DNA of 61,425 bases from Thermoplasmata archaeon (GTDB lineage Archaea; Thermoplasmatota; E2; DHVEG-1). The notes beneath the pieces were generated by a model, which was not told where the DNA came from, searched no databases, and saw only the letters and a list, made by a program, of their open reading frames with translations. Shown piece after piece: positions 15,587-55,309 of this stretch (its first letter is position 1; each line of letters begins with the position of its first letter). The DNA lies in contig DQIQ01000005.1 in assembly GCA_003942085.1 (NCBI GenBank), positions 1 to 61,425 of the forward strand, in the 5' to 3' direction. Both the position numbers and the translations under genes were made by a program.

Positions 15587-16261
15587 CTAATGTAGAAGCT
15601 CAGACGATAACGCTTTTTTCTCCCCAAATAAAAAAGAAGTCTCCAGAGGGAGCTTTGTCGGTTTACTCATCTCTAGTTTCAAGATGGTATCGATACCTTG
15701 TGAGGGAAGATGGGCTAGCGCCCCCATCTTTGCGTCAAATAAGAGAATGAACGTGTTGCATACCATACTGATCTCCTGCTTTCGCAGATCATGTAAAAAA
15801 TTATAGAACTCATCTAATTCCTCTCCTGTTGGTTTTGAGAAGTTGATGAGTTGTGAGAGGGAATCGATGATGACGATATCCGGGTTTGTTTTCTCAATGC
15901 CGTAGTGGATGATTTCTTTCATCGTGTGAAGATCCCGCGGTGGTTTATGGTACAGAACCCTATCGATGTTTTCTTCTACAGGGAATGCAAATCCGGAGAC
16001 GCAATCGATGAAAAAAACTCGTTTTTGATCAAGGGGTTTTTGCTCTAACGCATGTCTCATGTAGTCGTGACTTCGTGTCAATGAAACATAGAGGACATTG
16101 GTGAAATGATTTGATTTGATTTTATTAAAAAAATCAATCAGCTGAGTAAATTCCATTGAGTCATGGAGCACGAGGAGGATTCCGTCGAGGTTTTTCATTT
16201 CCTCATCAACATCATTGTGTATCGCGCGCCAGTACCTTATTTCGCCTTCTTTTTCCATCAT
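15587..16261 (-). CDS. Inactive KaiC/RecA-fold protein (no Walker A)
   Basis: LYVSL, FFIDCVSG, VIIDSLSQ strands of RecA-like fold; paralog of 16272-16910. Confidence 0.7.
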   Translation of the reverse strand: MMEKEGEIRYWRAIHNDVDEEMKNLDGILLVLHDSMEFTQLIDFFNKIKSNHFTNVLYVSLTRSHDYMRHALEQKPLDQKRVFFIDCVSGFAFPVEENIDRVLYHKPPRDLHTMKEIIHYGIEKTNPDIVIIDSLSQLINFSKPTGEELDEFYNFLHDLRKQEISMVCNTFILLFDAKMGALAHLPSQGIDTILKLEMSKPTKLPLETSFLFGEKKALSSELLH

Positions 16262-16271
16262 ATGAATCGCT

Positions 16272-16910
16272 CTAATCTTTCCATTCTGGTTTTTCTTTTA
16301 TGACTTCTAGCTTCATGATCGTGTCCGTGAACAGGGTAGGGAGTGTTTTCATTGACCCCATTTTATCATCATAGAGGAGGATGATGGCATCGCGAGTGAT
16401 GTTGAGGGTGTCTTCTTTTACAGATCTAAGAAAGGTGTAGAAATCGTGAAGTTCTTCTTCTGTCGGCATGGTGAAATTTATAAATTGTGAGATTGAGTCG
16501 ACGATGATGACATTGGGGTTTGACCACCGAATGTTATCCAAAATCAAATGTTTCATTTCCTCTAAATTACTGGGAGGGCTTCGGTAGACGCAGTCTGCCG
16601 TATCATGATGGTCAAGGAGGAAGCCGGAGACACAGTCGACGATAAAGAGCTTCTTTGAAGGCAAGGGAAACATTTGTAGGGTTTTTTTGATATGATCATA
16701 ACTGTTGATCAGGGAGATATAAAGGATCGTTATCTCCTTGTTTTTTCGCAGGTTTTTTAGAAAATCGACAAGGTCTGAGAACTCTATGGAGTTGTGGGTA
16801 AGCAAGATTAAGCCATGGAGAGATTCAAAGGTTATACTGATTTCTTTTCGTATTTCTTTCCAATAGTTTATCTGAACTATATTGAGTTCTTCCATAGGTC
16901 CTCTCATCAT
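16272..16910 (-). CDS. Inactive KaiC/RecA-fold protein (no Walker A)
   Basis: LYISL, IVDCVSG, IIVDSISQ; paralog of 15587-16261. Confidence 0.7.
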   Translation of the reverse strand: MMRGPMEELNIVQINYWKEIRKEISITFESLHGLILLTHNSIEFSDLVDFLKNLRKNKEITILYISLINSYDHIKKTLQMFPLPSKKLFIVDCVSGFLLDHHDTADCVYRSPPSNLEEMKHLILDNIRWSNPNVIIVDSISQFINFTMPTEEELHDFYTFLRSVKEDTLNITRDAIILLYDDKMGSMKTLPTLFTDTIMKLEVIKEKPEWKD

Positions 16911-16927: not shown

Positions 16928-17302
16928 TTAGATAGCAGGACTACGCAGGATATGTTGGTGGATCGTGTTGATGAGGTCAGGAAACTCAAATGGTTTGGTG
17001 ATGTAATCGACGATTCCCAGTTGGAAGAGTTTTCGTTTTTCTTCATCTGAATATCGCACGACCGAGAGAAGGATTATCTTTGGTTTGGTTTTTTTTGCTT
17101 TGAGTTGTTCAAGGATTTCTCTGGTGGTAAGACCCGGCATCATGACGTCAAGGGTGACAAGGTCTGGTGTGAAATCATCGATTTTTTTGAGAAAATCATC
17201 ACCATTCTCCGCGGTGACGGTCACAAATCCTTCTTTGTGGAGCATGAGATTAATCATTTCTCTCAGATCGGGTTCATCATCTACGATCATTATTTTCGTC
17301 AT
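16928..17302 (-). CDS. Stand-alone receiver (REC) protein
   Basis: IVDDE, DVMMPG, ITKPF. Confidence 0.92.
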   Translation of the reverse strand: MTKIMIVDDEPDLREMINLMLHKEGFVTVTAENGDDFLKKIDDFTPDLVTLDVMMPGLTTREILEQLKAKKTKPKIILLSVVRYSDEEKRKLFQLGIVDYITKPFEFPDLINTIHQHILRSPAI

Positions 17303-17321: not shown

Positions 17322-17337
17322 GTAATGTTAATGTAAT
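17322..17337 (-). promoter_or_regulatory. Two ATTAC boxes (GTAAT on +) 11 bp apart upstream of receiver gene
   Basis: GTAAT at 17322 and 17333. Confidence 0.55.
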
Positions 17338-17371: not shown

Positions 17372-19909
17372 TCACACAGAGGTCTCTGCCAGCTCCTTAA
17401 TCTTGTTTACAGTAACATCATTTGATTTAATGGGGAGAACAAATCGAAAAATACTGCCTTTGCCCTCTGAGCTTTCAACCCATATTTTTCCACCATGCAA
17501 CTTAATGATACCCTTACAAAGAGCAAGACTAAGACCAACACCACCTAACAATCGGTCATCACCAGAATCTACCTGATAAAATGGCTCAAAAATCATTTCC
17601 TGTTTATCCTTTGATATCCCACGACCAAAATCCTGCACCTCAAACAAAATATCGTCATTTTCCTTCCTTGCTCTAATGTTAATCACCGAGCCGTCTGGTG
17701 AAAACTTTATCGCATTACCAACAAGATTCTGTATCACCTGCTTTATCTTGTCACAGTCAACGATCAAATCAGGCAATTCTTTTTCCACATCGACGTTGAT
17801 TACCATCTCCTTTTCATAATCATACGCTTGCAAGGTCTTGGTTGTTTCTTCGACAAGAGTTTTTGGATTCACGTTACAGGGAGTAATAATCAGGGTCCCT
17901 GTTTGTACATTGGAAATATCAAGAATATTCTGTATGGTATGATCAAGACGGTTGGTATTACGCAAGATTACCTCAAGACCTTTCATCTGCTCTGCATTTG
18001 TGCCACCGAAACTCTGTTTTAACAACATCTGCGTATATCCCTTTATCGCCGTAATCGGAGTACGCAGCTCATGAGAGGTGTTTTTCAGAAATGTCGTCTT
18101 GATGTCATTCAGTTTTTGCAATTGTATATTCTGAAATTCAAAATACTTGTTGAGGTCCTTAATTTCTTTAATGGCATTATTACGTTGAATGGCGATCGCG
18201 GCTTGGTTGATAAACGTCTCAATAACTTCAAGGTTCTGGATCTTGCAATCATTTTTTGCAGCCACAAATATATTCCCAAATATTTTTCCGTCTTTAACAA
18301 GGGCGATTGTGTATAACTCATTTAGGTTCATTAACTTGTCAATAATGAGAGATATCGCTTTTGGAAACTGAGGGAGAACAAATCTATTAAAATCATCGAC
18401 AGAGAGATGTATGAACTTTCCTTGGATTAACTGTTGCCGTATTCCCTCATCGTTTAACACAAAATTTGTACCGGCAGGATCTTTACCCAGGATTTGTAAA
18501 AATTTTTCCATGTATTTTCCATATCCTAGGACCTTGTTAATAATAAAATTGCTCGAATTTTCATCAAAATACGCAATCGTCACGAAAGCATTACTTACCA
18601 TTTGTTGTATTTTTTCTCCAATGTATTGGTAAATATCACCACCAATTGGAAAATTCGCTAGTTCAATTGCGGTTGTCGATAAAAATTGAGCGTTTTCTAT
18701 ACATTTGTTCTGGGTCTCATCTAAAATTTTACATGACGAACAGGATAAATCTACCGCTTTGAAGGAATCCTGAGGTATGATTACTTGTTTCTCAAGCTCA
18801 TTCATTTCTCCAGGTTTTTCACCAAGAAGAGGGTTTTCTGCTGTATTTGTACCTGTCCCCAGCCCAAACAGATCAACTCCCTTGAACCGTTTTTCAATGC
18901 CGGTTATGGATTCCACGGGCAAAACGAACTTAAACGTGCTCCCCTTGCCAGGGATCCCTTCGCTTTCAACCCAGATTCGTCCGCCATGAGCAACAACAAT
19001 ACCATAACAAATGGCAAGACCAAGACCGGCTCCTCCAAACTTTACATCCGTACTGGAATCTACCTGATAGAATGTCTGGAAAATTTTCTGATGATGTTCA
19101 GTAGATATTCCCCGACCGAAATCCTGTATCTCAAACAGGATATCCTGGTCTTGTTTTTTCACTCTAACATTAATAACAGACCCATTTGGTGAGAACTTGA
19201 CTGCGTTGGTTAAAATATTTATAATAACCTGTGTAATCCGATTGTTATCAATACCTAATTCAGGGATTGCTTTTTCTACTTCGGTATCAATTTTTATTCC
19301 TTTTAAACCAGCGGTAATTTGCATTGCGTCATAAACTTCTTTTATCATTTTTTCGATATTTGTTTTTTCAACAACAAACTTCATCGTTCCAGATTCCAGT
19401 CGCGAAACATCAAGAATATCTTGGATGAGACGAGCTAATCGATCTGAATTACGTTGAGCGATGTCCAATGCATTTTTTTGTTCATCATTGATCGGCCCAA
19501 GAGTTCCTCTCAAAATCATTTGGATGTATCCTTTTATTGCAACTATTGGTGTACGGAGCTCATGAGAGGTCATGTTCAGAAAAGCTGATTTTATTTCACT
19601 TAGTTTTTTCATTTTATCAGTAGTTTCGTATAAATCCTCCATGATGTTCAACGTCGCCAGATCATTTCCTTCCAAAATGTTAATTTTTTCCTGCAACAAC
19701 TCTTGATTTTTTTTATTTTCTTTAAAACTCTCCCCGAGGTCTTCAATCATCATGTTTATACCAATCGCAAGTGAATCAAAGTCATCGTTTTTGTTTGAAA
19801 TTACAATCTGAGTAGAATAATCTCCTCTCGCCACTCGTTCTATCGCTATGACCATTTTACTTATACGATCTTTCTCCGATATTTGATCCATTATCAGCTT
19901 CATTTTCAC
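17372..19909 (-). CDS. Tandem double histidine kinase (HAMP-HisKA-HATPase-GAF-HisKA-HATPase)
   Basis: Two TSHELRTP H-boxes and two N/G1/G2 sets; N-terminal HAMP-like segment without TM. Confidence 0.9.
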   Translation of the reverse strand: MKMKLIMDQISEKDRISKMVIAIERVARGDYSTQIVISNKNDDFDSLAIGINMMIEDLGESFKENKKNQELLQEKINILEGNDLATLNIMEDLYETTDKMKKLSEIKSAFLNMTSHELRTPIVAIKGYIQMILRGTLGPINDEQKNALDIAQRNSDRLARLIQDILDVSRLESGTMKFVVEKTNIEKMIKEVYDAMQITAGLKGIKIDTEVEKAIPELGIDNNRITQVIINILTNAVKFSPNGSVINVRVKKQDQDILFEIQDFGRGISTEHHQKIFQTFYQVDSSTDVKFGGAGLGLAICYGIVVAHGGRIWVESEGIPGKGSTFKFVLPVESITGIEKRFKGVDLFGLGTGTNTAENPLLGEKPGEMNELEKQVIIPQDSFKAVDLSCSSCKILDETQNKCIENAQFLSTTAIELANFPIGGDIYQYIGEKIQQMVSNAFVTIAYFDENSSNFIINKVLGYGKYMEKFLQILGKDPAGTNFVLNDEGIRQQLIQGKFIHLSVDDFNRFVLPQFPKAISLIIDKLMNLNELYTIALVKDGKIFGNIFVAAKNDCKIQNLEVIETFINQAAIAIQRNNAIKEIKDLNKYFEFQNIQLQKLNDIKTTFLKNTSHELRTPITAIKGYTQMLLKQSFGGTNAEQMKGLEVILRNTNRLDHTIQNILDISNVQTGTLIITPCNVNPKTLVEETTKTLQAYDYEKEMVINVDVEKELPDLIVDCDKIKQVIQNLVGNAIKFSPDGSVINIRARKENDDILFEVQDFGRGISKDKQEMIFEPFYQVDSGDDRLLGGVGLSLALCKGIIKLHGGKIWVESSEGKGSIFRFVLPIKSNDVTVNKIKELAETSV

Positions 19910-19936: not shown

Positions 19937-20329
19937 CTACTCCTTTAGCCATGCAAGACTACTTTCTTTTGAATTGAAAATTTTTATATTTTTATTCTTA
20001 GAAAAACCAATGACAAAAGACGCAATCACTCTGACAACTGGATTATAGCCATATATGGCGATTTTTCCGACCGATTCATCTTCGGTCATTTTTGCGAAAA
20101 TCTTTCTTGCTTCCGATGTTGGTTTCTTACATACACTGTTATTTATCAACAGATCCACTTTCCTTGTAGTGTTCCCTTCAATCCTGCGCATCAGTTTCGT
20201 AGATGCATCCTTCAACGCAAATGCATCTTGCACATCGAAGTCTCCAACAAGATCAATATACATAATGCCATCTTCACCGAGATAAAATCTACTTTCTCCC
20301 ACTCGAATTTCCCTTTCTTCTTTGTTCAA
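19937..20329 (-). CDS. STAS/SEC14 (SpoIIAA-like) small protein, copy 2
   Basis: KPTSEARK, KIAIYG.NPVVRVIASF, IFNSKE.ALAWL; TTG start. Confidence 0.75.
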   Translation of the reverse strand: MNKEEREIRVGESRFYLGEDGIMYIDLVGDFDVQDAFALKDASTKLMRRIEGNTTRKVDLLINNSVCKKPTSEARKIFAKMTEDESVGKIAIYGYNPVVRVIASFVIGFSKNKNIKIFNSKESSLAWLKE

Positions 20330-20388: not shown

Positions 20389-20389
20389 T

Positions 20390-20782
20390 TTACTCCTTAA
20401 ACCATGCAAGAGCATCTTCTTTTGAATTGAAAATTTTTATATTTTTATTCTTAGAAAAACCAATGACAAAAGACGCAATCACTCTGACAACAGGATTACT
20501 TCCATATATGGCGATTTTTCCGACCGATTCATCTTCCATCAATTTTGAGAACATCTTTCTTGCTTCCGGTGTTGGTTTCTTTGCCGCGTTGCTATTTACT
20601 AAGATTTTTATTTTCCCTTCATCATTTTTTTTAGCCATACCTAACATTTCCAAAAAAGCATCCCTTATTGCCAATGCATTTTGCTCATTGTATTCCCCGG
20701 CAATTTCGATATACAATATATCATCTTCATCATAACAAAATCTACTTTCGCCCACTTGCATTTCTTTTATTAATTCGTTCAA
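20390..20782 (-). CDS. STAS/SEC14 (SpoIIAA-like) small protein, copy 1
   Basis: C-terminal half nearly identical to 19937-20329 in protein and DNA. Confidence 0.75.
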   Translation of the reverse strand: MNELIKEMQVGESRFCYDEDDILYIEIAGEYNEQNALAIRDAFLEMLGMAKKNDEGKIKILVNSNAAKKPTPEARKMFSKLMEDESVGKIAIYGSNPVVRVIASFVIGFSKNKNIKIFNSKEDALAWFKE

Positions 20783-21996
20783 CTCTTCACTTTTCCAGCC
20801 AGTTCATTTATTCTTTTTTTCAATTCAATCATTTTCATTTCTCTTTCGATAGTCACTTTTTTAAAACGTTGAAGCTCATCAACTTTCTTCATAAGAGCAT
20901 CTGTCGAACCTTGCAAAGAGCGATGCGTTTCATCCAATTTCACTTGACTTTGTTGAAGCTGCAGAAGCATTTCATTTATTGTTTGAGTGAGCAGAGTGAT
21001 TTCATCGTTTCTCCCGCTACTCTTCACCCTGGAGGAGAAATCTTTGAGCTCACCGATGCTTTTAATTTGTTTTTTCAGACGATTCAACCGGGAGATGATT
21101 ATCCTGTCCACGAGAAGAACGATGGCACATGACACAACAACGATAACACCGACAATAATGACAAGGAATTGAATCATTGCATTTTGACCAAGGATGGCGG
21201 TTGATCGAGGACTATCTGTCCGTAAGATAATACCGGATTGCCCATAGATGTCTTTTAATGCTGTGTACCCTACGACAAATGTAGTGTTTAGTGGTCGAAC
21301 AACGATTGGGTTTTTTTCAGATAACAATGAAATCGCTTGCTGATAGTCTTTTGGTAATTGAGGATTGTCAATGAATTCAAATTGTATCGATAATTGGGTT
21401 GTTAAAGAGATTTCATTTATTTCTTCATCATTTAGATATATTCCAATGAGCAATGTTCCTTGGATTGGACCGTCCATATAATTGGTGAGAATAGGTCTGG
21501 ATGTAAGGATTACAGCCTGTTGTTGAAAGATAAGGATTCCACTGATTGTACTATTGAGTGTAGGATGCTCCAAGAGTATTGACCCAGAGCGAAGATGATC
21601 TATTAATTCTGGAGGGATAGGGGTCTCTTCGTTTTTTTGTAAATCAAATGCTTTACCGTAGATAATCTGATCTGAGGTGTTAATAAATATCATGAAATTG
21701 ATATTGAGGTTTGTGAATGTATTATCCATAAGATTATTTGCAATATATTCTGGGTTTTTTCCTTGAACGAAGGTATAGGTATCATTCCACTGTGCCCAAT
21801 CCCCTGCGATCGTATCAAGAGTATATTGTTCATTTGAAAAGGCATTAATTATTCTTTCAATGTTCTTTGTGATTATATCTTTTTCAATGATTTCAATAGA
21901 TTTGGTTAATACCAAATTTGACAGGAAGAATAAAATAGAAACTAAGCAAACGACTATTACTGTAATTGAAAATATGATTTTTCTACGAAGCATCAT
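20779..21996 (-). CDS. Membrane sensor TM-CHASE4-TM-HAMP-coiled coil, no catalytic output
   Basis: DWAQWNDTYTF (CHASE4), two TMs, HAMP (NDEITLLTQTINEML), tail EREMKMIELKKRINEL. Confidence 0.85.
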   Translation of the reverse strand: MMLRRKIIFSITVIVVCLVSILFFLSNLVLTKSIEIIEKDIITKNIERIINAFSNEQYTLDTIAGDWAQWNDTYTFVQGKNPEYIANNLMDNTFTNLNINFMIFINTSDQIIYGKAFDLQKNEETPIPPELIDHLRSGSILLEHPTLNSTISGILIFQQQAVILTSRPILTNYMDGPIQGTLLIGIYLNDEEINEISLTTQLSIQFEFIDNPQLPKDYQQAISLLSEKNPIVVRPLNTTFVVGYTALKDIYGQSGIILRTDSPRSTAILGQNAMIQFLVIIVGVIVVVSCAIVLLVDRIIISRLNRLKKQIKSIGELKDFSSRVKSSGRNDEITLLTQTINEMLLQLQQSQVKLDETHRSLQGSTDALMKKVDELQRFKKVTIEREMKMIELKKRINELAGKVKS

Positions 21997-24900
21997 GTTC
22001 TTTTCGACTCCTCTTGTAATTGCATGATTTTATTCTTCAATTCGACCATTTTTAGTTCTCTGTCGACCGTGACTTTTTTGAATCTCTCCAGTTCGTTTAT
22101 TTTTTCTTTTAACGCTTCTTCGGCTTTTTTATGTTCGGTGATATCGTGGACCATAATCATATCCGCAGATTTTCCGTGGTATGTAATAACATCTCCGCTG
22201 AGTTCAACATTTATCTTCCGGCCATCTTTGTGCACAAGCACTGAATCATATACTCCCGGGACATCTTCACCGGCCAAACGTCGTTTGTAGTATTCAACAA
22301 CCTTTGGAATTTCGTCAGGGTGGACGTAGTCAGACATCGGAGTACCAATAATCTCTGCAGGGTTGTAACCAAGTATGTTAAACGCTCGGGGATTGACGTA
22401 TTTGATGATGTTTTTGTCCTGTAAAATGACGATGGCGTCGTGAGCCCGCTCCACCACGTTACGGTATTTCTCCTCGCTCTCGTTTAGTTCTTTTTCCATT
22501 TTCTTGCGTTCGGTTATGTCTCTAATAACACCAAGCACAGTTATGGTTTTTCCAGCATCATTTTTCACAGGACTAAGAATTGAACTTGCCCAAAATTCAT
22601 TCTCACCAACAAACTGTTTTTCTTCAAATGAAAAAACTTGACCTGTTTTGAATACTTTTTTCACATTTTCGATATTTTTAGCAGCAATTTCTTTGGGGAA
22701 TAATTCAGAAATAGTTCTTCCAATTATTTCGTTTTGTGTTTTTCCAAAGAGCTCCAATGCGGCTCTATTTACGGATATCATTTTGAATTCATCATCAATC
22801 ATAACAATCTGATCGGAAGCATTTTCAACAAGAGATCTGTATTTCTCTTCGCTTTCTTTCAGCGAATCCTCCATTTTCTTCCGTTCAGAAATATCAACAG
22901 CAAAACCTCGAAAGCCAACAAATTTATTTTCTTTGAAAATTGGAACTGAATGAAATATCGCTGGGAAAGTCATTCCATCTTTCCTTTGAACTAAATATAC
23001 CTCCCCTGTTGTCGATTCACCATTCTGTATTTTCTGGATGACACTTTGTAGTTTCTCACGTTCGCAAGGAGCAATCATCTGAAAAATATTCAATCCCTTT
23101 TTGAAATCTTCCTGTGTGTACCCTAACGAAATAAAAGAAGCTTTATTAGTATAAGTTATATTCCCATGTTCATTGGTCTCGTAGACGATCTGTGGTAACG
23201 AATCCGCCAATTCACGATATTTTTTTTCACTTTGTAAGATAGCTTCCTCCGCTTGCTTGCGCTCGGTGATGTCTCGGATGACGCCCACGACGAACTTTTC
23301 GCCCGAGGGATTGACATACCTAGTCTTCCTTGTGACAATTTCCCTGACATCCCCGCCGCCGGTGGTAAGCTTTTCCTCGCACAGGTTCTCTTCGCCCGAA
23401 GATAAAACTTTGTTGTCCATCTCCAGGAAATGTTCCATCTCGCTTTCCAACAGAAATTCAGCGCCGGTCTTTCCTAACAACTCCTCGCGCGACTTCTTTA
23501 GGATTTTACAGAGGGCGTCGTTTACGGTAACAAATCGGCATTGGCCGTCTTTTACAAAGAGGGGGTCGCCGGCGGCATCTATGATGTTCATAAAATAGTC
23601 CCTTGACTTGTTTAAAAGATCTTCCATTTTCTTGCGCTCGGTGACGTCGGTATTCACGCCACGATAACCTAAAAGATTACCATCTTTATCCAGAAAAGGG
23701 AAAGTACATGTTTCCAACAACACAATTTTACCATTCTTGTGTACGTTTGCATATAAAACGTTTTTAGCGGGTTCTTTCGTCGTTAATTTTTCAATTCCTA
23801 CTTTCATTAATTGTTCTTTGATATCAGGGGTGAAAAAATCATACCAATATTTCTTTGTAACGATTTCTTCTGATTTGTAGCCAAGTATTTTTTCGACAGC
23901 TGGACTTGTGTATGTGAATAAACCTTTTACATCGATTTCCCAGATCCATTCACCGACATTTTCGGAAATATGTCTAAACCGTTCTTCACTGGTCTTGATA
24001 TTTTCTTCTGCTTTCTTCTGATCAGTAATGTCCCTACCGATTACTTGGACGGTTTTCTTCCCGTCGGAATATGTAATAGGGACGTAAATATTGTGAAAAT
24101 ACCTTTCCCCTCGTGCATCCTCTGTTTCTTGATTTTTCCCTTCATGCAATGCCTTTCTGGCAATGCTTGAGCGTTGTTCAGCGATTTCTTTTGGTAGAAT
24201 GCTTAGAATATTTTTACCAATCAACTTTTCAAGCGGAGCGCCCAGGCTTCTAGCCAGGGGTTCATTTGCAGATAGAATATTTCCTGCATCATCGGTTTCG
24301 ATGATTAAATTTGGAGACGAATCAAACAACTTTTTATATTTTTCTTGAGACGCTTGGAGTTCTTGCTCAGCCTTCTTCCGCTCGGTGATGTCATGACCAT
24401 AAACATTTGCATATCCGGCTTCTATAATAGGTGCAATGACAAACGAAAAAACCTTGCCACTAGCATCTTCTTCTTCTTCTTCTTCTGCTTTTATTTTTCC
24501 AGATTTTAAAGAATTCTCAATGAAATGACGCCACCGCTCGGGAGCAACATCACCAACATTTGATTTCCATTTTGCAAGTAGTCCAACGCTCGCATCGTTC
24601 GCATACAAGATTTTTCCATCTTTTGAAATACGCAACACAGGATAAGGATTTTCAGCAGGCAATCTGGCTAAATTACGTATTTCTTTTTCTGCATTTTTTT
24701 CTTTGGTGATATCAACAAATGTTATCGCAAAAAAATCTTCTTTTATTGAATAAGAATCCATTTTTAGATATTTGTTATAAAATGGGGTATAATCTACCCA
24801 ACTGTATGGTTTTCCTGTAATAACTGAGCTTCCATTCATCTCAGCATATTTTTTTCCTGCGTCCTTACCAATGAGATCTGTCGCAGTCTTGTTTATTAAA

Positions 24901-47352: not shown

Positions 47353-47515
47353 TTTTTTACCACCCACCACTTTTTTTACCAAACAACCTCTCGCAACACC
47401 CCATCACCATATGAAACGAAAAAATATCGCTGATGAATAGGAAAAAATAACTGACTATTCATACTCATTCACATTCCCATCCGTTTTTCCGTTAAATGTT
47501 AAGATAACCACAAAT

Positions 47516-47976: not shown

Positions 47977-47984
47977 AGTTTTTC

Positions 47985-50900
47985 TCACCTCCTTTTTCTT
48001 TCCAATCCAAATAAATCCATTTCGCTAAATCTCCGTTCGACATCCTCAACAGGTCGGAGCGGCAATGTAAAATAAAAAGTGCTGCCTGTCCCATCAGCGC
48101 TTTCAACCCAGATTTTTCCACCGCTCGCAATGACAATACCTTGCGAGATAGCAAGGCCAAGACCAGCACCACCAAATTTTCTATCAGCACCAGTATCGAC
48201 TTGATAAAACAAATCAAAAATCTTCTCTTGCTTGTCCTTTGGAATGCCTCGTCCGAAATCCTGAATTTCAAACAACACCGTTTCGTGCTGCTTTTTTACT
48301 CGTATATTAATATGAGAACCGTATGGTGAGAACTTTACCGCATTATCGATCAGGTTGATGATGACTTGTTTGATACGCTCTGTATCGGCAATCAACTCGG
48401 GGATGCCTGATTCGATTTCCGTATTGATCTTAATCTGCTTTTGACCGGAAAAAGGCTGCATGGTATCAACAACCTCAGCCAGCATACCTCTTATTTCTAT
48501 TTCATCAACGACAAATTTCATCGTACCTGACTCTAAACGCGACACATCAAGGATATCTTGAATGAGGCGGTCTAACCGATTCGTGTTCCGTAAAACAACA
48601 TCCAATGCCTGTCGTTGATCATCGTTGATCTGGCCAAGTGTCTGTTTCAACAGGATTTGTGAATACCCTTTAATCGCGGACATCGGCGTGCGCAGCTCAT
48701 GGGAGGTGATGTTAAGAAAATCTGTCTTTAGCTGATCTGTTTTTTTCAACTGAATATTCTGTTGTTCGATTTCCCGCTGATAGTTCTTCAGTTGGATATT
48801 CTGCGAATTGACTTGCTCTTCAGCATCCTTACGTTCAATGGCTAAGGATGCTTGATTGATAAACGTCTTAATGGTCTCCAGATTTTCAACCTTACAATCT
48901 TTATATGCGGAGAGAAAAACAAAACCAAATAATTTATTTTCAGCTATTAGCGGTATGACATAAATTTCATCAAAATTAATAATTTTTTTAATGTGTTGAG
49001 AAATATTTCTTGGCATTTGAGGAAGAATAATTGACTCAAAATCCTCCTCCGATATTTTTTCGAGATTTCCCCGAGTAAATTTATTTCGCCATTTATCATC
49101 TTCATAATCTAATTTCATACCTACTGGACTTCTACCAAGTATTTTCAGAATGGTTTCCATGTAACTACTATAACCAAAAAGTTTGTACACAACAAATTTA
49201 TTTGTTTTTTCATCATATTTTACTATCGTGATATAGGTATTTTTTGTCAACATTTGGAGTTTTTCTCCAACGAAATCAAAAATATGATCACAGGTCGGCA
49301 AAAGAGCAAGTTTCATGACAGCATCAGATAAAAACAGTTGGTTCTCAAGATATATTTTTTCCGTTTCCTCTGCTTTTTTACGATCGGTGATATCTATGGC
49401 AAATCCTCTTACACCGACAATCCTGCTTTCGTTTATTACCGGAGTTGAAGAAAATATTGCCGGGAAGGTCGTTCCATCTTTCCGTTGTAGTAAATATTCA
49501 TTAGCTGATGTTGATTCTCCGTTCATTACTTTTAGTATATTACTTTTTATCCGTTCGCGATCATGAGGCGCAACCGTCTGAAAAGCGTTCAAGCCCTTTT
49601 TGAATTCTTCCTGTGTATAACCAGTCAAATCAATGGATGCTTGATTGATAAACGTAAAATTCCCATGTCCATCAATCTCGAACACCATCTGTGGTAATAA
49701 ATTCACAAATTCACGATATTTTTTTTCACTTTGTACGATAGCATCCTCTGTTTTCTTCCGTTCACTAATATCAGCCGAACTGCTGATTAAAGCAACTATT
49801 TCATTGTTCATAAAGATCGGGCCAACATGTACCTCAAAAAAGCGTGATACGCCATCTCTTGTTATATATTCAGTATGATAAATATCCGGCTTGCTACTCT
49901 GTAAAACACGCTTAAAACAATTAGCTGCATCCTTTTTCCATTCTCCTGGAGTAAAATCGTAAACGCTTTTTCCGATTACATCTTCTTTGGAAAGGTCTGA
50001 AACAGGACGATTTATAAATAAAATCCGTGCTTCTTTGTCAAGTAACATTATGTGGTCAGGAGAGTTTTCTGTAATGGACCTCCATTTTTCTTCACTTTCC
50101 TTTAATTTTTCGTCTGCTTTTTTACGCTCGGTGACATCTCGTAGTATCGCAAGAAATCCTTGGTTTTTTCCATTCTTTACAATCGGGACGGCGTTGATTT
50201 CAACATAGTACTCTTCACCTTTACGGTTCATCAATTTTACTTCGTAAGCCGGGGGATGAATCCCCAGTTTACGTTGTTGAAAATTCTTCAACATATATTG
50301 CTTGCTTTCTTTTGCAATAATTTTATCCAAAACACTAAAATTTTTACCAATTAAATCTTTTCGTTCATATCCAATGCGTTGTATCCCGGCATCATTGATG
50401 TCCACTATAACCCCTTCGTTATCTAAGGAAATGATGCTGTCGCCAGCAGAATTAAAAATCGTTTTATACTTCTCTTCGCTTTCTCTAAGAATGTGCTCTG
50501 CTTTTTTTTCATTTGTGATATCTCTTACAATTAGTTGGATGGTTTTCTTTCCACCAGGATGGATGATGGGAACGTAAATATTTTGAAAATACCTACCTGC
50601 TCGTTCATCCTCAGATTCTAGATTTTTTCCTTCTTCAAGTGCCTTTCTAGCAATTTTTGCGCGTTTTTCACCTATCTCTTTAGAAAGAAGGTTAAGAATA
50701 TTTTTACCAATTAATTTTTCAGCGGGAACGCTCAAGTTTTTAGCCATTGCCGAATTAACAGATAGAATATTTCCGTCTTCATCAACTTCAATAATTAATT
50801 CAGGAGACGAATCGAACAATCTTTTATATTTTTCTTGAGAGCTGTGGAGTTCTTGTTCCGCTTTCTTCCGCTCGGTGACATCCCAGGAAATTCCTCGATA

Positions 50901-52544
50901 CCCAAGTAATCCACCGTGGTCATCAAAAAAAGGAACCACGTTCGTTTCCACGAAAACCAATCGACCCTGACTATCGTAAGCAGTTGTTTCCATTCCACTA
51001 AACGGTTTTGGAGAATCTCCTGTTGCCCTAAACTTTTTTAGTGTTTTTTCTTTATCGCCCGGAGGCATAACATCAAAAGGTGTCTTCCCAATCATTTCTT
51101 CAGGCTTAAATCCCCATAATTTCTCAATTTGTGGGCTACAATAAGTATATCGCCCCTGAGAGTCCATTTCCCAGATAAACTCACCGGTTGTTTCTATCAA
51201 ATTCTGAAATTTTTTCTGGCTTTCCCTAAGTGATATCTCCACCATTTTACGCTTGGTGATATCCTGGTTAATTGCTACGACTCCAATTTCTTTCCCGGCA
51301 ATATCTTTGATGACATTCATTGATGCATAAATGGTGATCGGTGTTCCATCCTTGTGTCTCTCGATGACATCTCCAGTCCAGTATCCATTTTTTTTAAGTT
51401 GTTTTAAGGCGTCTTCACTCGTGGTGTTGATATATTCAATTTTGAGGACATCATGGACCTTTTTATTGATTACTTCGTGTTCTTTCCATCCGAATATTCG
51501 TTCTGCGGCCACATTCCAGGTTTTTATAGTAAAATCAAAATCACTAGAAATGACTGCATCAGATACGTTTTGCAGAAGTTCTGCCTGATACCTGATTTTA
51601 TCTTCTGCTTTTTTTTGTTCAGTGATATTTCTGCAAATTCCTTCAGCCCCGATGATCTTTCCATTTCCATCATAGATCCCTTTGTTTGACTGCCGTATCC
51701 ATCGTTCGTTTCCTTCAGGGTCAATGATCTTATATTCCAATGTTTGGTGAACTCTATCGTTTATAAAATCATTCCATTTTTCTTTGATATACGCCGCTGA
51801 ATCCGGGTGGATGATCGTGCTGACAAAACGCGGCGTGTGCAGAAAATCTTCTTCACTGTACCCGAAAACAGACCGTACTGCAGGACTTATGTAATTGTAG
51901 TTTCCATCGGGAAACGAGAGACGAAAGACACACTCGTTTAACCCTTCAATGATCTCACGATATTTTTTTTCACTTTGTAAAAGAGCTTCCTCCGCCTGTT
52001 TACGCTCGGTGATGTCCATCACCACGATGCGGCATTCCTGCCCATCCTCAGCAACTTTTGCTTCAAGGTGCACCCAAAACGGTGGATGCCCCTCTCGAAG
52101 GATTGGCGTCTCGCAGGATGCTGATGCCTGACCGGTAAAAACCTGCTTGAGGAAGGAATTGAAGATGGGGCGAAAATCATCGGATACAAAAAGTGAGAAT
52201 CGTCGGTTCATCAGCTGCGAACGGTTCACGCCAAGAAGACGAGCGCCAGGGAGGTTGACCTGGCGGACCGTCCCGACACGATCCAAGGTAAAATAGCTGA
52301 CCGGGGCGAAATCATACAGATCGGTGTGTTGAGCAAGAACCACCTTTGCCTTATTCGCCCGCCTAAGCTCCTCATTTTGTAGCTCAAGCTCAATCTGATG
52401 GACTTGCAGTTCATGAAGAAGCCGCTGCGCGTCCTGTTGGGTTGGTTGCAGAGCACTAGGTTCAGACCACTGACTCTTCAGTCGTTTCTCTGCCCTGCGA
52501 CGCAGATCAGCAGCATCCGGGGGATCGCCGGGGTTCTTTTTCAT
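47985..52544 (-). CDS. Eight-PAS-GAF sensor histidine kinase
   Basis: LLHELQVHQIELELQNEELR N-terminus, eight PAS units, TSHELRTP, NAVKF, DFGRGI, GAGLGL. Confidence 0.92.
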   Translation of the reverse strand: MKKNPGDPPDAADLRRRAEKRLKSQWSEPSALQPTQQDAQRLLHELQVHQIELELQNEELRRANKAKVVLAQHTDLYDFAPVSYFTLDRVGTVRQVNLPGARLLGVNRSQLMNRRFSLFVSDDFRPIFNSFLKQVFTGQASASCETPILREGHPPFWVHLEAKVAEDGQECRIVVMDITERKQAEEALLQSEKKYREIIEGLNECVFRLSFPDGNYNYISPAVRSVFGYSEEDFLHTPRFVSTIIHPDSAAYIKEKWNDFINDRVHQTLEYKIIDPEGNERWIRQSNKGIYDGNGKIIGAEGICRNITEQKKAEDKIRYQAELLQNVSDAVISSDFDFTIKTWNVAAERIFGWKEHEVINKKVHDVLKIEYINTTSEDALKQLKKNGYWTGDVIERHKDGTPITIYASMNVIKDIAGKEIGVVAINQDITKRKMVEISLRESQKKFQNLIETTGEFIWEMDSQGRYTYCSPQIEKLWGFKPEEMIGKTPFDVMPPGDKEKTLKKFRATGDSPKPFSGMETTAYDSQGRLVFVETNVVPFFDDHGGLLGYRGISWDVTERKKAEQELHSSQEKYKRLFDSSPELIIEVDEDGNILSVNSAMAKNLSVPAEKLIGKNILNLLSKEIGEKRAKIARKALEEGKNLESEDERAGRYFQNIYVPIIHPGGKKTIQLIVRDITNEKKAEHILRESEEKYKTIFNSAGDSIISLDNEGVIVDINDAGIQRIGYERKDLIGKNFSVLDKIIAKESKQYMLKNFQQRKLGIHPPAYEVKLMNRKGEEYYVEINAVPIVKNGKNQGFLAILRDVTERKKADEKLKESEEKWRSITENSPDHIMLLDKEARILFINRPVSDLSKEDVIGKSVYDFTPGEWKKDAANCFKRVLQSSKPDIYHTEYITRDGVSRFFEVHVGPIFMNNEIVALISSSADISERKKTEDAIVQSEKKYREFVNLLPQMVFEIDGHGNFTFINQASIDLTGYTQEEFKKGLNAFQTVAPHDRERIKSNILKVMNGESTSANEYLLQRKDGTTFPAIFSSTPVINESRIVGVRGFAIDITDRKKAEETEKIYLENQLFLSDAVMKLALLPTCDHIFDFVGEKLQMLTKNTYITIVKYDEKTNKFVVYKLFGYSSYMETILKILGRSPVGMKLDYEDDKWRNKFTRGNLEKISEEDFESIILPQMPRNISQHIKKIINFDEIYVIPLIAENKLFGFVFLSAYKDCKVENLETIKTFINQASLAIERKDAEEQVNSQNIQLKNYQREIEQQNIQLKKTDQLKTDFLNITSHELRTPMSAIKGYSQILLKQTLGQINDDQRQALDVVLRNTNRLDRLIQDILDVSRLESGTMKFVVDEIEIRGMLAEVVDTMQPFSGQKQIKINTEIESGIPELIADTERIKQVIINLIDNAVKFSPYGSHINIRVKKQHETVLFEIQDFGRGIPKDKQEKIFDLFYQVDTGADRKFGGAGLGLAISQGIVIASGGKIWVESADGTGSTFYFTLPLRPVEDVERRFSEMDLFGLERKRR

Positions 52545-55309
52545 TACGTTTCCTTCCGTAATACGGCAGACTTTGACACATTTCCCGTGCCCTTCGCAGA
52601 TTTATCACGCTGTATTTCATCCTGCAGTTTCGTTTCGACCTGCTCCAGCATTGTGTCTTGTTTCATGATGCGTTTTTTCAATCCGACCTGCGTTTTCCGT
52701 AGCGCAGTCTCCAGCATCTTCGATGCAGTGATATCCATAAAGGTAATCACCACCCCGTCAATCATGTTCTCCAAGGTGCGATAGGGGACGACACGCACCA
52801 TGAACCAGCGCCCATCGCGCGTGGCCGCCTGCTGCTCGCGAAAGACCAGCGTTTGCAACACCTCGCGGATATGATCAACCAGCTCAGGATAGAGCAGATC
52901 AGAGGCAATATCCGTAATCGGCCTGCCTACATCACCGGGGATCAACTTGAAAATATTGTTCGAACCGGTCGTAAACAAGCGCACACGCAAATCATTGTCA
53001 AGGAACACGGTGGCGATTTCAGTGTTCGCAAGCAGGTTCTTCAGGTCATTGTTGAGCCGTGACAGATCATCGACCTTGGCCAGTAACTCATGATTGAGCG
53101 TCTGCAGCTCCTCGTTCATGGACTGCATCTCTTCTTTTGAGGTGGTCAACTCCTCATTCGTGGACTGGAGTTCCTCATTGGCGGACTGCATCTCCTCGTT
53201 AGCAGACTTGTATTCCTCCTGAGACGTCTGCATCTCTTCACGAAGGGTTTCCACATCCTGACGGGCTTGACCTATCTCCCGCTCCATCTGAGCAAGCAGC
53301 ACGCGACTCGCATGAGGCCTGACCTTATCCGACGCTTTAAGCTTCGTTTCAAAAGGCGCTACCACATCAGTAAAGACGATCATCACCAATCCCCGTAACG
53401 CTTCCGGTTCAGCAATGGTCTGAACGGTCAGGTCCAGAACCTGCACTCCACCGTTTATCCCCACCTTGAGATTTTTGAGTGTGACGGCGTGCTTTTGCCG
53501 CAACGCGTTACGGAACGCGCTGGTAAGCTCGAAACGCAACCCTTCACGAGCCATAGCAAAGATGTTCCAGTTTGCCTTTCCAGCAGCCGGTTCCAGGTAT
53601 TTACCGGTTCGCCCACTGACGTAAAGGATGTCGCCTTGGCTGTTGACCAACACCGCGGCCGGAGAATAAGTCTGCAGGAGCAGTTGGTCAGCCAACGTTT
53701 GAAGGTTGATCGGCTTCACCTTCGGTACCGATGACACGTTTGATCTGGTGGGGACAAACGAGGAGGGAAACTCAACGGCCTCTGCCCGCAAACCAGATTC
53801 AAGCCGCTTGTAGAGCCGTGATTTATCATCCAGGGACATGAAGAGATCATCAAACCCCGCGATGTTCTCCGCGCTGCCCAGAAACAGAACACCCCCAGGA
53901 TTCAGACTGTAATGAAAAAGAGGCAACAGCTTTTTCTGCAGCTCAGGAGTCAAGTAGATAAGCAGGTTCCGACAACTAACGAAATCAAGCTTGGTGAACG
54001 GTGGATCCATGATGACGTTCTGCGGGGCGAAAATCACCATATCCCGGATCGACTTAGCAACCTGGTAACCCCGCTCGACCTGCACGAAGAACCGGTTCAG
54101 TCGCTCCGACGACACATCAGCAGAGATGTTTGAAGGGAAAATACCAGAGCGAGCTTTCTCAACAGCATCCTGATCAAGGTCTGTTGCGAAGATCTGTATC
54201 CTGAAATTCCTGGACAGTTTCAGTTGATCAAGCTCCTCTTTGAAGACAATCGCCAGGGAATACGCCTCTTCCCCAGTGGAACAGGCAGGCACCCACACCC
54301 GCAGTGCCTGATTTGACGGATGTGCACCCAGCAGTGCCGGGATGACCTCATCTTTCAGTTTTTCCCATGCTTCATGGTCGCGGAAAAAGCTCGTAACCCC
54401 GATCAACAGCTCCTTGAACAACAACTCCAGTTCCTGGGAATTCTCCTGCAAATACCTGACATAATTGGTAATCTTGTCAATCTGATGAATTCCCATACGC
54501 CGTTCGATCCGGCGGTAGATCGTGTTCTTTTTATAAAGTGAGAAATCATGGCCTGTCTGCGATCGCAGCAGGATTACGATCTTTTCAAAGGCGCTATGGG
54601 TTTTATCCGCCCTGGCCATTCCTGCTTCATTAATCAGGGGAATATGCTGCAGATAGCTAAAGATCTTATCGGGCAACGCCTCAACCGAGGCGACGACATC
54701 CGCCAGTCCAGCATCGATGACACTGCGGGGCATACCGTCGAATTTCGCTGAAGCAGGATCCTGCACAAACACCACACCGGCTTTCTCCTTGATTGCACGC
54801 AGACCCAGTGTACCATCGGAGCCCATCCCCGAGAGGATGACGCCGATGCTGTGGTCTTTCAGGTCATCGGCAAGCGAGCGGAAAAAGAAATCAATCGGCA
54901 GACGCTGACCCCGTGGCGCCATCGGCTCCAGCAGATGCAGGACCCCGCGTAAGATAGACATATCTTTGTTCGGAGGGATCACATAGACGCTGTTCGGCTT
55001 GACCTTCGTTCGGTCTATGACCTGAACGACCTTCATGGCAGTCACCCGCTGAAGAAGCTCAGGCATGATGCACTTGTGGACCGGGTCCAGGTGTTGAATG
55101 ATGACAAAAGCCGCACCACTGGTGGCTGGCACGTTCTGCAGGAATAGTTCGAGTGCTTCCAGCCCTCCCGCGGAAGCACCGATGCCGACGATGGGAAAAG
55201 AGGATTGACTCGTAGAAAACAGGCTGTCCTGCTGCAGAGATGTTTCTGGTTTTAACGCCTCCATGATCGGCTCTTTTTTACGGGTAGTTTTCTTGTTTTG
55301 TCTGCGCAT
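52544..55309 (-). CDS. CheB methylesterase-CheR methyltransferase-coiled coil-PAS fusion
   Basis: GASAGG, QHL, GMGSDG (CheB triad); VTSFFRD, ACSTGEEAYS, CRNLLIY (CheR); NEELQS heptads. Confidence 0.95.
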   Translation of the reverse strand: MRRQNKKTTRKKEPIMEALKPETSLQQDSLFSTSQSSFPIVGIGASAGGLEALELFLQNVPATSGAAFVIIQHLDPVHKCIMPELLQRVTAMKVVQVIDRTKVKPNSVYVIPPNKDMSILRGVLHLLEPMAPRGQRLPIDFFFRSLADDLKDHSIGVILSGMGSDGTLGLRAIKEKAGVVFVQDPASAKFDGMPRSVIDAGLADVVASVEALPDKIFSYLQHIPLINEAGMARADKTHSAFEKIVILLRSQTGHDFSLYKKNTIYRRIERRMGIHQIDKITNYVRYLQENSQELELLFKELLIGVTSFFRDHEAWEKLKDEVIPALLGAHPSNQALRVWVPACSTGEEAYSLAIVFKEELDQLKLSRNFRIQIFATDLDQDAVEKARSGIFPSNISADVSSERLNRFFVQVERGYQVAKSIRDMVIFAPQNVIMDPPFTKLDFVSCRNLLIYLTPELQKKLLPLFHYSLNPGGVLFLGSAENIAGFDDLFMSLDDKSRLYKRLESGLRAEAVEFPSSFVPTRSNVSSVPKVKPINLQTLADQLLLQTYSPAAVLVNSQGDILYVSGRTGKYLEPAAGKANWNIFAMAREGLRFELTSAFRNALRQKHAVTLKNLKVGINGGVQVLDLTVQTIAEPEALRGLVMIVFTDVVAPFETKLKASDKVRPHASRVLLAQMEREIGQARQDVETLREEMQTSQEEYKSANEEMQSANEELQSTNEELTTSKEEMQSMNEELQTLNHELLAKVDDLSRLNNDLKNLLANTEIATVFLDNDLRVRLFTTGSNNIFKLIPGDVGRPITDIASDLLYPELVDHIREVLQTLVFREQQAATRDGRWFMVRVVPYRTLENMIDGVVITFMDITASKMLETALRKTQVGLKKRIMKQDTMLEQVETKLQDEIQRDKSAKGTGNVSKSAVLRKET

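Follow-up and report, generated by a model that had tools for sequence, protein, structure and literature searches.

We analysed a stretch of 61,425 nucleotides (contig DQIQ01000005.1 of assembly GCA_003942085.1, hereafter the window) from a Thermoplasmata archaeon, the genome of which comprises 2.02 Mb and is 82.9% complete. Between 15.6 and 55.3 kb this window carries a gene island, in which KaiC ATPases, dead KaiC paralogues and two-component sensors are grouped around a type IV pilus operon. Its gene content was derived from a listing of open reading frames (ORFs) and from Pfam scans of the window ORFs, and the coordinates are given in Table 1. An initial annotation, made from the sequence alone, had listed a double-domain KaiC fusion, a single-domain KaiC, five KaiC-like proteins lacking Walker A, four receivers, three kinases, two sensors, a CheBR protein, a pilus operon and a ribbon-helix-helix (RHH) regulator, and this inventory was borne out completely. 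The core of the island is a cassette consisting of the KaiC fusion (KaiC2HK), two inactivated KaiC proteins (iKaiC; KaiCl4 and KaiCl3) and the single-domain KaiC1, which lies tail to tail with the pilus operon. Two additional modules pair stand-alone receivers with iKaiC genes (kinase-REC1-KaiCl2-KaiCl1 and RHH-KaiCl5-REC2).

Both RecA-like domains of KaiC2HK contain a Walker A (GSSGSGKT at residue 78, GSPGTGKS at residue 314) and a Walker B motif, and residues 55-518 align end to end with KaiC of the Protein Data Bank (PDB; E 1.7e-99). The second domain (CII) retains the catalytic Glu pair (FEES). In the first domain (CI), TLTEP stands opposite TFEES of PDB KaiC, so that the first catalytic Glu is replaced by Thr. 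The stretch LSTISD (456-461) aligns with the phosphosite stretch ISTITD of PDB KaiC and may constitute an autophosphorylation site. When compared with curated family models, KaiC2HK passed the NCBI KaiC equivalog NF006799 (410.6 bits, cut-off 408) and failed TIGR02655 (333 bits, cut-off 546). Judged by its Walker A motifs, the CII Glu pair and the phosphosite motif, KaiC2HK is a genuine double-domain KaiC. As stated in the initial annotation, the island ORFs scanned gave no domain match for KaiA, KaiB, CheA, CheW or methyl-accepting chemotaxis proteins (MCP). For KaiB (PF07689) there was also no match in the genome, but since the genome is 82.9% complete, the gene may simply be unassembled. 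For KaiA the negative result refers to Pfam scans of the island ORFs, and no genome-wide search was made.

The kinase module fused to KaiC carries N, G1, F and G2 boxes in the window protein (G1 is degenerate in some orthologues), but its H-box reads TREIRSP, with Arg at the position of the acceptor His. In an alignment of 14 KaiC fusions (window protein, G014 and 12 database proteins; genomes and loci of our comparison bear G and L numbers), this position was occupied by Arg in 13 proteins, by Gln in one and by His in none. All four unfused kinase modules of the window have the His. Since the acceptor His is lacking, the KaiC-fused module is incapable of the standard autophosphorylation on His, and possible roles are those of a scaffold, a phosphatase or a kinase for another substrate. 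Among the best 8000 database candidates scored, at least 26 clusters are KaiC-PAS fusions of at least 831 aa, with or without the kinase part, and those with a taxon label are labelled Thermoplasmatota. In the literature searched, we did not find a KaiC fused to a His-less kinase.

Neither GK[ST] nor G....GK[ST] is present in any of the five KaiC-like proteins (KaiCl1 to KaiCl5), and the catalytic Glu has been lost: YISFQRP, SASRPY and YISLINSY are found in iKaiC where KaiC1 has YMSFEES. Their Pfam KaiC matches are weak (E 5e-6 to 7e-3), and the homology rests on profile alignments (hhalign) and on a fold match. KaiCl4 and KaiCl3 are paralogues according to their profiles (hhalign 99.8%, E 6.5e-29). 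The KaiCl1/2 family, whose two island members share 40% identity, aligned to KaiCl4 (96%) and KaiC1 (92%), and the cytoplasmic domain of KaiCl5 aligned to the profiles of KaiCl3 (97%, E 9.6e-11) and KaiCl4 (92.5%). Direct alignment of KaiCl4 to KaiC1 reached only 42%. KaiCl2 has 212 database relatives, none of them usefully named. A PDB profile search with the KaiCl4 and KaiCl3 alignments returned weak matches alone (E 0.0037-0.2), and therefore a fold search was needed. The AlphaFold (AF2) model of KaiCl4 had a predicted local distance difference test (pLDDT) value of 88.8 and a predicted template modelling (pTM) score of 0.88. In Foldseek, its best matches were the RecA-superfamily ATPase PH0284, KaiC, FlaH and Elp4/5/6, and the top ones (PH0284, KaiC, FlaH) had E-values of 9e-6 to 1e-4 and template modelling (TM) scores of 0.55-0.68. 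Taken together, homology, fold, and the loss of Walker A and catalytic Glu classify the five proteins at the sequence level as inactivated KaiC.

Complex prediction, which covered one island pair (KaiCl4 and KaiCl3), yielded an interaction prediction score from aligned errors (ipSAE) of 0.80, compared with 0.00 for the best of three controls. The 0.80 mark is reached by 58 of 80 solved complexes and by 2 of 110 mismatched pairs. Contact agreement between runs was at least 96% and the pLDDT of the partner was 88. The initial annotation had envisaged complexes among the KaiC-like proteins, and for this pair a heteromer is predicted. On the KaiCl4 side, the modelled contacts fall on three regions, namely the degenerate P-loop, the site where the catalytic Glu has been lost and the terminal part of the Walker B strand. 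The KaiCl3 side would contribute two C-terminal helices with the invariant residues F143, H145, R152, Q177 and D180. This interface has the head-to-tail geometry of RecA/KaiC rings, and likeness to solved rings may therefore account for part of the pass. Elsewhere in the genome (G000:C135:971-6187) there is a separate pair, consisting of a 256-aa KaiC gene and a KaiC-like gene of 198-202 aa without Walker A. A pair of this kind is present in most genus genomes searched, and pairs of an active and a dead KaiC look like a general design of the lineage.

A KaiC timer or hourglass would offer one explanation for these proteins: a slow phosphorylation cycle would run in the KaiC fusion, the iKaiC pair and the His-less module would replace KaiB and SasA/CikA, and the pilus would follow elapsed time. 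The conserved phosphosite motif and CII catalytic residues point in this direction, as do the narrowly exceeded NCBI equivalog cut-off, the lack of a KaiB match in the genome while two conserved partner genes always follow KaiC, and a kinase-like module that has been kept in 14 of 14 fusions and yet lacks the His. On the other hand, the first CI catalytic Glu is a Thr, KaiB may be missing from the assembly and the TIGR02655 cut-off was failed. Moreover, KaiC homologues outside cyanobacteria act, according to the accessible literature, in stress or age-dependent signalling without a rhythm. We consider a timer improbable. As in the cyanobacterial KaiABC-SasA/CikA-RpaA system and in bacterial KaiC-kinase-receiver sets, the island combines a double-domain KaiC bearing a Ser/Thr phosphosite motif with kinases and receivers, through which the output of these sets runs in the available descriptions. 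For Pseudomonas, the accessible part of a preprint (10.1101/2022.01.26.477890) describes that KaiC, kinase and receiver interact. In contrast to the cyanobacterial system, KaiA and KaiB were not found in the searches described above, the kinase module is fused and His-less, iKaiC partners are present and a pilus operon is linked.

The units of the island share a motif, which first surfaced in a repeat search as an AT-rich direct repeat at four intergenic places. ATTAC-N6-ATTAC matches 12 times in the window, whereas 100 shuffled sequences gave a mean of 0.14 matches (largest 2). The 12 matches make up 7 sites, all of them intergenic and within the island (17322-46791), so that the shared promoter motif of the initial annotation stood up to this control. 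Five sites have three copies at 11-bp spacing (25796, 26469, 34154, 44151, 46765) and two sites have two copies (17322 and 45660). The whole genome contains 22 matches, compared with 9 for the reversed control, and 12 of these 22 lie in this window. The intergenic modules are paralogous copies of a single unit of ~70 nt. On the strand of the adjacent genes, four sites read as a TATA-like box, 15 nt and three GTAAT repeats, and at these four sites the distance between the last repeat and ATTTAAAT, ATTTAAAC or ATATAAAT is exactly 15 nt. With such a layout, a bound protein would cover the expected transcription start. Around the site upstream of the KaiC fusion (34154-34203), 200 nt are ~80% conserved in two congeners. 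Among the congeners, the module precedes the KaiC-fusion orthologue in two genomes, the PKD-pilus operon in three (G001, G014, G021) and the RHH gene in four. No ATTAC operator was found in print in the literature searched. A triple-motif match in G036 was rejected as a simple repeat that the reversed control matches too, and locus L041 has one unrelated ATTAC pair. The only other multi-copy ATTAC site of the genome (G000:C32:13648-13685; L001 9649-9686) has four copies, corresponding to three of the 22 matches. A cold-shock-domain gene lies ~245 nt downstream of it, ahead of sugar-nucleotide genes for an epimerase, a UDP-glucose dehydrogenase and a nucleotidyl transferase, and the site possibly belongs to the regulon as an outlier.

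Table 1. Features of the island, stretches bridged by contigs of other samples, and a related stretch in G021
Feature	Position	Strand	Remarks
KaiCl1, iKaiC	15587-16261	-	224 aa; Pfam KaiC E 0.0039; no Walker A; IVIIDS kept
KaiCl2, iKaiC	16272-16910	-	212 aa (relatives point to a 207-aa form)
REC1, stand-alone receiver	16928-17302	-	PF00072 E 7.5e-26
ATTAC-N6-ATTAC box	17322-17337	-	20 nt before REC1 start; preceded by TATTAAAA stretch
HK2x kinase	17372-19909	-	845 aa; HAMP and two tandem HisKA-HATPase_c modules, H-box SHELRTP in both
Two DUF7793 / SpoIIAA-like (STAS-like) genes	19937-20329, 20390-20782	-	60% mutual identity; C-termini near-identical
CHASE4-HAMP membrane sensor	20779-21996	-	no output domain; two hydrophobic segments
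7xPAS protein	21993-25682	-	no output domain; PAS repeats paralogous to those of 47985-52544
Promoter-operator module	25796-25845	-	on - strand ATTTAAAT, 15 nt, (GTAAT-N6)x3; upstream of 7xPAS operon
Promoter-operator module	26469-26518	-	same layout as 25796; upstream of ORF 26040-26441
NosD/beta-helix + 3xPKD surface protein	26638-28188	-	orthologue heads pilus operon in three congeners
Bridged junction, PKD/KaiCl3	27598-28745
KaiCl3, iKaiC	28306-28875 (ORF); 28306-28863 (from relatives' ATG)	-	185 aa from that ATG
KaiCl4, iKaiC	28856-29443	-	195 aa; Pfam KaiC 26.6 bits, at cut-off
KaiC2HK, KaiC fusion	29465-34003	-	1512 aa; KaiC x2, PAS, GAF, PAS, HisKA, HATPase_c (Pfam)
Bridged junction, divergent KaiC-fusion/pilus region	32870-34656
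Promoter-operator module of KaiC fusion	34154-34203	-	(ATTAC-N6)x3, fourth ATTAC, then ATATAAAT
Second ATTAC/GTAAT cluster	34343-34385	+	around TTTATAAA stretch, pilus-ATPase side of divergent region; read by eye, no statistics
Type IV pilus operon	34515-42933	+	divergent from KaiC2HK
T2SSE ATPase	34515-36494	+	pilus operon; PF00437
T2SSF	36491-38254	+	pilus operon; PF00482, two stretches
Pilin	38175-38711	+	pilus operon
ORF	38698-39024	+	pilus operon
Pilin_N-DUF2341 giant protein	38978-42076	+	pilus operon
DUF7289	42091-42933	+	pilus operon
Bridged junction, DUF7289/KaiC1	42237-43499 (one run), 42018-43212 (another run)
KaiC1, single-domain KaiC	43018-43938	-	306 aa; Walker A, FEES, Walker B intact; convergent with pilus operon
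Bridged stretch, KaiC1 to RHH gene	43678-45990
Promoter-operator module	44151-44200	-	upstream of KaiC1
Operon RHH, KaiCl5, REC2	44267-45638	-	overlapping starts and stops
REC2, stand-alone receiver	44267-44644	-	last gene of RHH operon
KaiCl5, membrane-anchored iKaiC	44638-45429	-	middle gene of RHH operon
RHH regulator	45426-45638	-	70 aa; PF01402 E 7.9e-8, 32.4 bits (cut-off 20.5)
ATTAC-N6-ATTAC box	45660-45675	-	22 nt upstream of RHH start; conserved in four congeners
Membrane-anchored protein	45742-46359	-	205 aa; N- and C-terminal hydrophobic segments; always adjoins RHH operon
TTTTTAAATA, then (ATTAC-N6)x3	46765-46810	-	heads 400 nt before 46359 that hold no credible gene
REC3, stand-alone receiver	46951-47382	-
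REC4, stand-alone receiver	47611-47988	-
8xPAS-HisKA-HATPase_c kinase	47985-52544	-	canonical H-box SHELRTP
CheB-CheR-PAS_10 fusion	52544-55309	-	no receiver on CheB part
Orthologous stretch of CheBR region in G021	L064 13676-17926

With its T2SSE and T2SSF proteins and Pilin_N pilins (PF07790 is present in two of its genes), the pilus operon has the sequence signature of an archaeal type IV pilus system of the euryarchaeal type. The island ORFs scanned did not include a prepilin peptidase, and the genome was not searched for one. The pilin gene and the following ORF 38698-39024 differ in frame, and their paralogues at G000:C103:11053-11733 are contiguous in one frame. A run of nine A (38970-38978) reaches into the start codon of the Pilin_N-DUF2341 gene. 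Contigs of two other samples have eight A, which would join ORF 38698-39024 in frame with the pilin gene, at a low depth (2.6-5.3). The frame break in the window's pilin may be a frameshift or an assembly error. At G000:C111:4006-6849 a DUF7289-like gene stands ahead of two KaiC genes, the first of which is KaiC1-like (48% identity).

All four receivers lack an output domain (PF00072 E 1.8e-17 to 7.5e-26), and DDE and LDV/VDM motifs were read by eye in each of them. REC4 has ITQPF where the other three have I(T/L)KP(F/Y), so that the conserved Lys is replaced by Gln. The kinase HK2x is the product of a tandem duplication (1491-nt repeat spacing, 65-72% DNA identity), and its matches in congeners span just 244-389 aa. 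The genome has one MCP, which lies beside a separate CheR on another contig, no CheW, and no CheA dimerisation domain above the cut-off. The island does not match a chemotaxis adaptation system acting on MCPs: CheB and CheR domains are present, but no CheA or CheW was found, and the MCP of the genome is on the other contig. The RHH protein had its best NCBIfam match with CdrS, an assignment that was rejected (40.6 bits, cut-off 100), and it is not a member of the NikR family either. Its 205-aa neighbour is probably an Ig-like or CARDB-like surface protein; an atlas search gave Ig-like, CARDB and MG2-type neighbours, which are leads only. The shared peptide tags that the initial annotation had taken as a further link between the island proteins did not hold: the shared 6-mers all fall within the conserved cores of domains (kinase, PAS, receiver, STAS, pilin) that are paralogous between these proteins. 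Outside the island (6407-7765, + strand), the window encodes a MEDS-HisKA-HATPase kinase of low guanine plus cytosine (GC) content, the catalytic core of which is paralogous to the island kinases. Orthologues of this kinase (59-61%) adjoin the RHH operon in G001, G014 and G021. ATTAC pairs occur near them in G001 and G014, and a similar pair is found in the G003 locus. ORF 26040-26441 (133 aa, no family) is a doubtful gene. The segment 46360-46950, which on the - strand follows a TATA-like box with three ATTAC repeats, has 590 nt without a credible gene and may be a long leader or an RNA of a new type. Rfam detected no known RNA family in it, and a 91-aa ORF inside has no relative in the genome.

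Using the double KaiC part as query, we searched 41 related genomes for orthologues of the KaiC fusion (genus set n=22, including the own genome). Here, we found orthologues with 84-85% identity in two other genus genomes only (G003, G014), corresponding to 3/22, and the 256-aa single KaiC was nearly universal in the 41 genomes. In G014 and G003, the genes for the KaiC fusion, KaiCl4, KaiCl3 and KaiC1 follow each other on the same strand and are convergent with DUF7289, pilins, T2SSF and T2SSE. In the window the first three of these genes are on the other side of the pilus operon, and thus the KaiC-pilus linkage has survived rearrangement. A second scan involved one genome per species and 36 loci (30 archaeal-labelled, 6 bacterial-labelled), the neighbours being identified by local tblastn. 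The succession of KaiC, a KaiCl4-like and a KaiCl3-like gene was present in 15 of the 30 archaeal loci; six had the KaiCl4-like gene only and nine had neither, several of these contigs ending early. At seven loci with Thermoplasmat* or 'Methanobacteriota' labels, the cassette continues into a KaiC1 orthologue (46-77% identity), with DUF7289 in convergent orientation, and five of these seven have pilin, T2SSF or T2SSE matches beyond DUF7289. Among the 15 full-cassette loci, eight have labels of DPANN type, and the pilus part is missing from them. Double-KaiC orthologues (48-66% identity) were found in DPANN-labelled metagenome-assembled genomes (Aenigmatarchaeota, Nanoarchaeota, Micrarchaeota, Woesearchaeota, Undinarchaeota, 'ainarchaeum'; L021, L022, L024, L025, L028, L029, L031, L032, L035, L036, L038-L042), and several of these loci carry the iKaiC pair, binning errors being possible. 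Downstream of KaiC in the bacterial-labelled loci, there are a kinase and a receiver in four of six (L046, L049, L050, L053), a kinase only in L051 and neither in L047.

Within the genus, the triple motif was found in 5/22 genomes (own, G001, G003, G014, G021). The KaiCl5 operon is present in the identical five, and the same five have a pilus ATPase with at least 74% identity, every other match being at 65% or below. In all five bearers the 205-aa gene, RHH, KaiCl5 and REC2 are adjacent, with an ATTAC pair in the interval that separates the 205-aa gene from RHH. KaiCl2 orthologues extend further than the rest of the island (55-76% identity, nine other genomes, several genera). Directly upstream of KaiCl2-KaiCl1, a REC1 orthologue is encoded in 6/6 loci with flanking sequence (window, G014, L060, L062, L063, L064), and a kinase precedes this receiver in 5/5 loci with more flank. 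The module of kinase, receiver and iKaiC pair is thus conserved across genera. The synteny and co-occurrence that the initial annotation had named as a check were therefore recovered for the cassette, for its pilus linkage, and for the motif together with the RHH operon and the pilus ATPase.

The low GC content of the island (0.389 compared with 0.431 for the genome), its patchy distribution in the genus and weak PADLOC matches (mad8 P-loop and PDC-M43B on the HATPase part) could be expected if it were a chimeric assembly, a mobile element or an anti-virus defence locus. However, contigs from other samples and other studies align to the window with 0-2 differences, and since they bridge the junctions given in Table 1, the region is non-chimeric at these places, a chimeric assembly being a possibility that the initial annotation itself had raised. 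Island DNA was also present in wetland metagenome runs. No integrase or transposase domain was detected by Pfam among the window ORFs scanned, and a tRNA-Ser (463-547) was the sole result of Rfam and tRNA scanning across the window. The PADLOC matches are generic P-loop/HATPase ones, eight of ten proteins having none, and an anti-phage defence locus was rejected on the ground of these generic domain matches in 2/10 proteins. Island orthologues have diverged about like a housekeeping-type protein (75-85% vs 82-84% identity), which also argues against an artefact or a mobile element. For this one gene, identity was 82-84% in three bearers and 83-85% in four non-bearers, and the bearers therefore do not look like an exclusive tight clade. 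Ordinary metabolic genes form the left flank and PKD surface proteins the right one, and for several island proteins the closest relatives that bear a name carry the label Thermoplasmata, Thermoplasmatota or Thermoplasmatales, which fits the Thermoplasmatota affiliation presumed in the initial annotation. An artefact or one of these other island types is, in our opinion, highly improbable.

The island has precedents in part. Makarova, Galperin and Koonin reportedly proposed in 2017 that archaeal KaiC-family ATPases and iKaiC domains serve as signalling hubs. The KaiC paralogue expansion, the inactivated KaiC domains and the receiver links of the island resemble such hubs as far as the accessible accounts describe them. 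Unlike the described hubs, the island has a KaiC that is fused to a His-less kinase module and a shared operator that ties its units. Inactivated KaiC domains are described, with credit to the 2017 paper, in the accessible text of Galperin et al. (2018, PMC5847659), the Table 2 of which includes iKaiC-REC, REC-DUF835 and MEDS-REC fusions. In contrast to the iKaiC-receiver fusions, receiver and iKaiC are separate neighbouring genes in conserved modules of the island, and the iKaiC genes are paired. The accessible text of Makarova, Koonin and Albers (2016, PMC4858521) predicts KaiC-family ATPases as regulators near or in euryarchaeal clade 2 type IV pilus loci, reads the DUF2341 protein as tip adhesin, and states that a second component for the KaiC-like ATPase is mostly not evident. 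Like these loci, the island has a KaiC gene next to the pilus operon and a DUF2341 protein, but unlike the loci described there, its KaiC is accompanied by two conserved iKaiC partners, receivers and an RHH regulator. Thermoplasmat* has 0 occurrences in the main text of PMC4858521. The KaiC-iKaiC-iKaiC(-KaiC) cassette was not found in the literature searched, but the 2017 mBio survey and the supplements of PMC4858521 and PMC5847659 may list it.

In the archaellum, the ArlH-ArlI model holds, in the accessible descriptions, that phosphorylation-dependent binding controls the motor, and like ArlH (FlaH) and ArlI, the island encodes a single-domain KaiC-like ATPase with a T2SSE-type ATPase. However, KaiC1 is convergent with the operon rather than inside it, and the filament genes are pilins, not archaellins. 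Assignment of KaiC1 as ArlH (57.2 bits, cut-off 215) and of the pilus ATPase as ArlI/FlaI (355.7 bits, cut-off 550) was rejected. In the available descriptions of Haloferax volcanii, the KaiC-like gene for CirA belongs to the arl cluster and acts as a regulator that represses motility; the island likewise has a KaiC-like ATPase gene within a surface-filament locus, but it differs from CirA/CdrS in filament and in phylum. The KaiC-pilus linkage and inactivated KaiC are already in print, and the operator, the His-less fusion and the cassette appear new. The initial annotation's label of an undescribed system may apply to these three parts, but it is too strong for the kind of system, since predicted KaiC-pilus regulation and iKaiC-receiver fusions have been published.

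Taken together, we lean towards the view that the stretch is a correctly assembled accessory signalling and surface island with a conserved KaiC cassette, receiver-iKaiC modules, a shared operator and an RHH-controlled pilus output, and we rate this somewhat better than an even chance. The RHH protein would bind the ATTAC repeats as stacked dimers on a single DNA face over the transcription start and would repress the KaiC operons, the sensor operon and the pilus operon as well as its own. The canonical kinases, with input from PAS, CHASE4 and CheBR, would phosphorylate the receivers, and phosphorylated receivers would act on inactivated KaiC adaptors, which would tune the KaiC ATPases. Because receiver-iKaiC modules are conserved and REC-iKaiC fusions have been published, dead KaiC proteins are likely to be what the stand-alone receivers act on. 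By analogy with ArlH and ArlI, KaiC1 would gate the pilus ATPase, and the output would be whether the cell makes an adhesive pilus together with its surface proteins.

Several observations weigh against such a unified island. The phyletic ranges of its modules differ (KaiC fusion 3/22, KaiCl5 operon 5/22, KaiCl1/2 in other genera too), and the gene order varies between genomes. Among the 21 other congeners, a CheBR orthologue is present in G021 only (69% identity; partial in G002). Moreover, the GC content of the CheB-CheR-PAS_10 gene is 0.52 as compared with 0.39 for the rest of the island, and there is no ATTAC pair upstream of the CheBR operon. When we searched the 36 loci for ATTAC-N6-ATTAC, it was found upstream of the cassette in L019 and L020 only. 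The motif was thus not found in distant Thermoplasmatota loci that keep the cassette, and therefore the regulatory layer is of genus level and the cassette is older. The RHH-motif link consists of co-occurrence among related, non-independent genomes, the genome holds three other RHH_1 genes, and promoter direction and repressor role are readings of the sequence. Finally, the KaiC-fused kinase, lacking its His, cannot supply the receivers by the standard route, and the KaiCl4-KaiCl3 prediction may echo solved ring interfaces.

Part of these data would also fit a neighbourhood of independent modules (two-component, KaiC, pilus and CheBR-kinase) in an accessory signalling-rich stretch, where the promoter module was spread by local duplication and merely put some units under one transcription factor. 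The differing phyletic ranges, the single CheBR orthologue and the shuffled gene order speak for this possibility, as do the intergenic modules, which are copies of one unit, and the kinase, PAS and receiver genes, which are recent paralogues. However, the KaiC cassette has remained a neighbour of the pilus operon despite rearrangements, also in distant Thermoplasmatota loci, and one and the same set of 5/22 congeners has the motif, the RHH operon and the pilus operon. Furthermore, G021 again has nearly the whole gene set on a single contig: CheBR immediately precedes a group made up of a paralogous double KaiC, two iKaiC genes, KaiC1 and the pilus operon, KaiCl1/2 are on the same contig, and at locus L055 of this genome the KaiC1 orthologue is also beside DUF7289. 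We regard independent modules as rather unlikely, though an explanation to be reckoned with. As to the co-regulated unit tied to the pilus that the initial annotation had proposed, motif, synteny and co-occurrence in the same congeners support it in part, and the unequal ranges of the modules do not. The single protein-interaction circuit, possibly a timer, that it also envisaged is a hypothesis.

Going beyond the accessory island that we favour, one may picture a KaiC delay switch (hourglass) free of KaiA and KaiB, which would be common to Thermoplasmatota and DPANN-labelled archaea and would time the adhesive pilus via KaiC1 and the RHH repressor. In such a slow, phosphorylation-driven switch, a KaiC hexamer would bear sensor domains of its own together with the His-less dimerisation/phosphotransfer and catalytic (DHp/CA) module, which may be a receiver phosphatase dependent on the KaiC state or a scaffold. 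The dead-KaiC heteromer would take the part of KaiB by sensing or setting the state of KaiC. We consider this extension a long shot.

Archaeal signalling beyond chemotaxis is mostly prediction, and the locus bears on how stand-alone receivers pass signals on and on what the many KaiC paralogues do. It offers a compact testable set, which consists of a defined operator with a candidate regulator, a receiver-iKaiC module, a His-less KaiC fusion, an iKaiC pair and a pilus output. The organism is uncultured, yet all parts can be expressed and assayed in vitro. Conservation of the receiver-iKaiC module across genera points to dead KaiC proteins as the receiver targets that have been missing, and if the proposed links hold, the locus would connect bacterial-type two-component input with the KaiC network of archaea through individual, named proteins.

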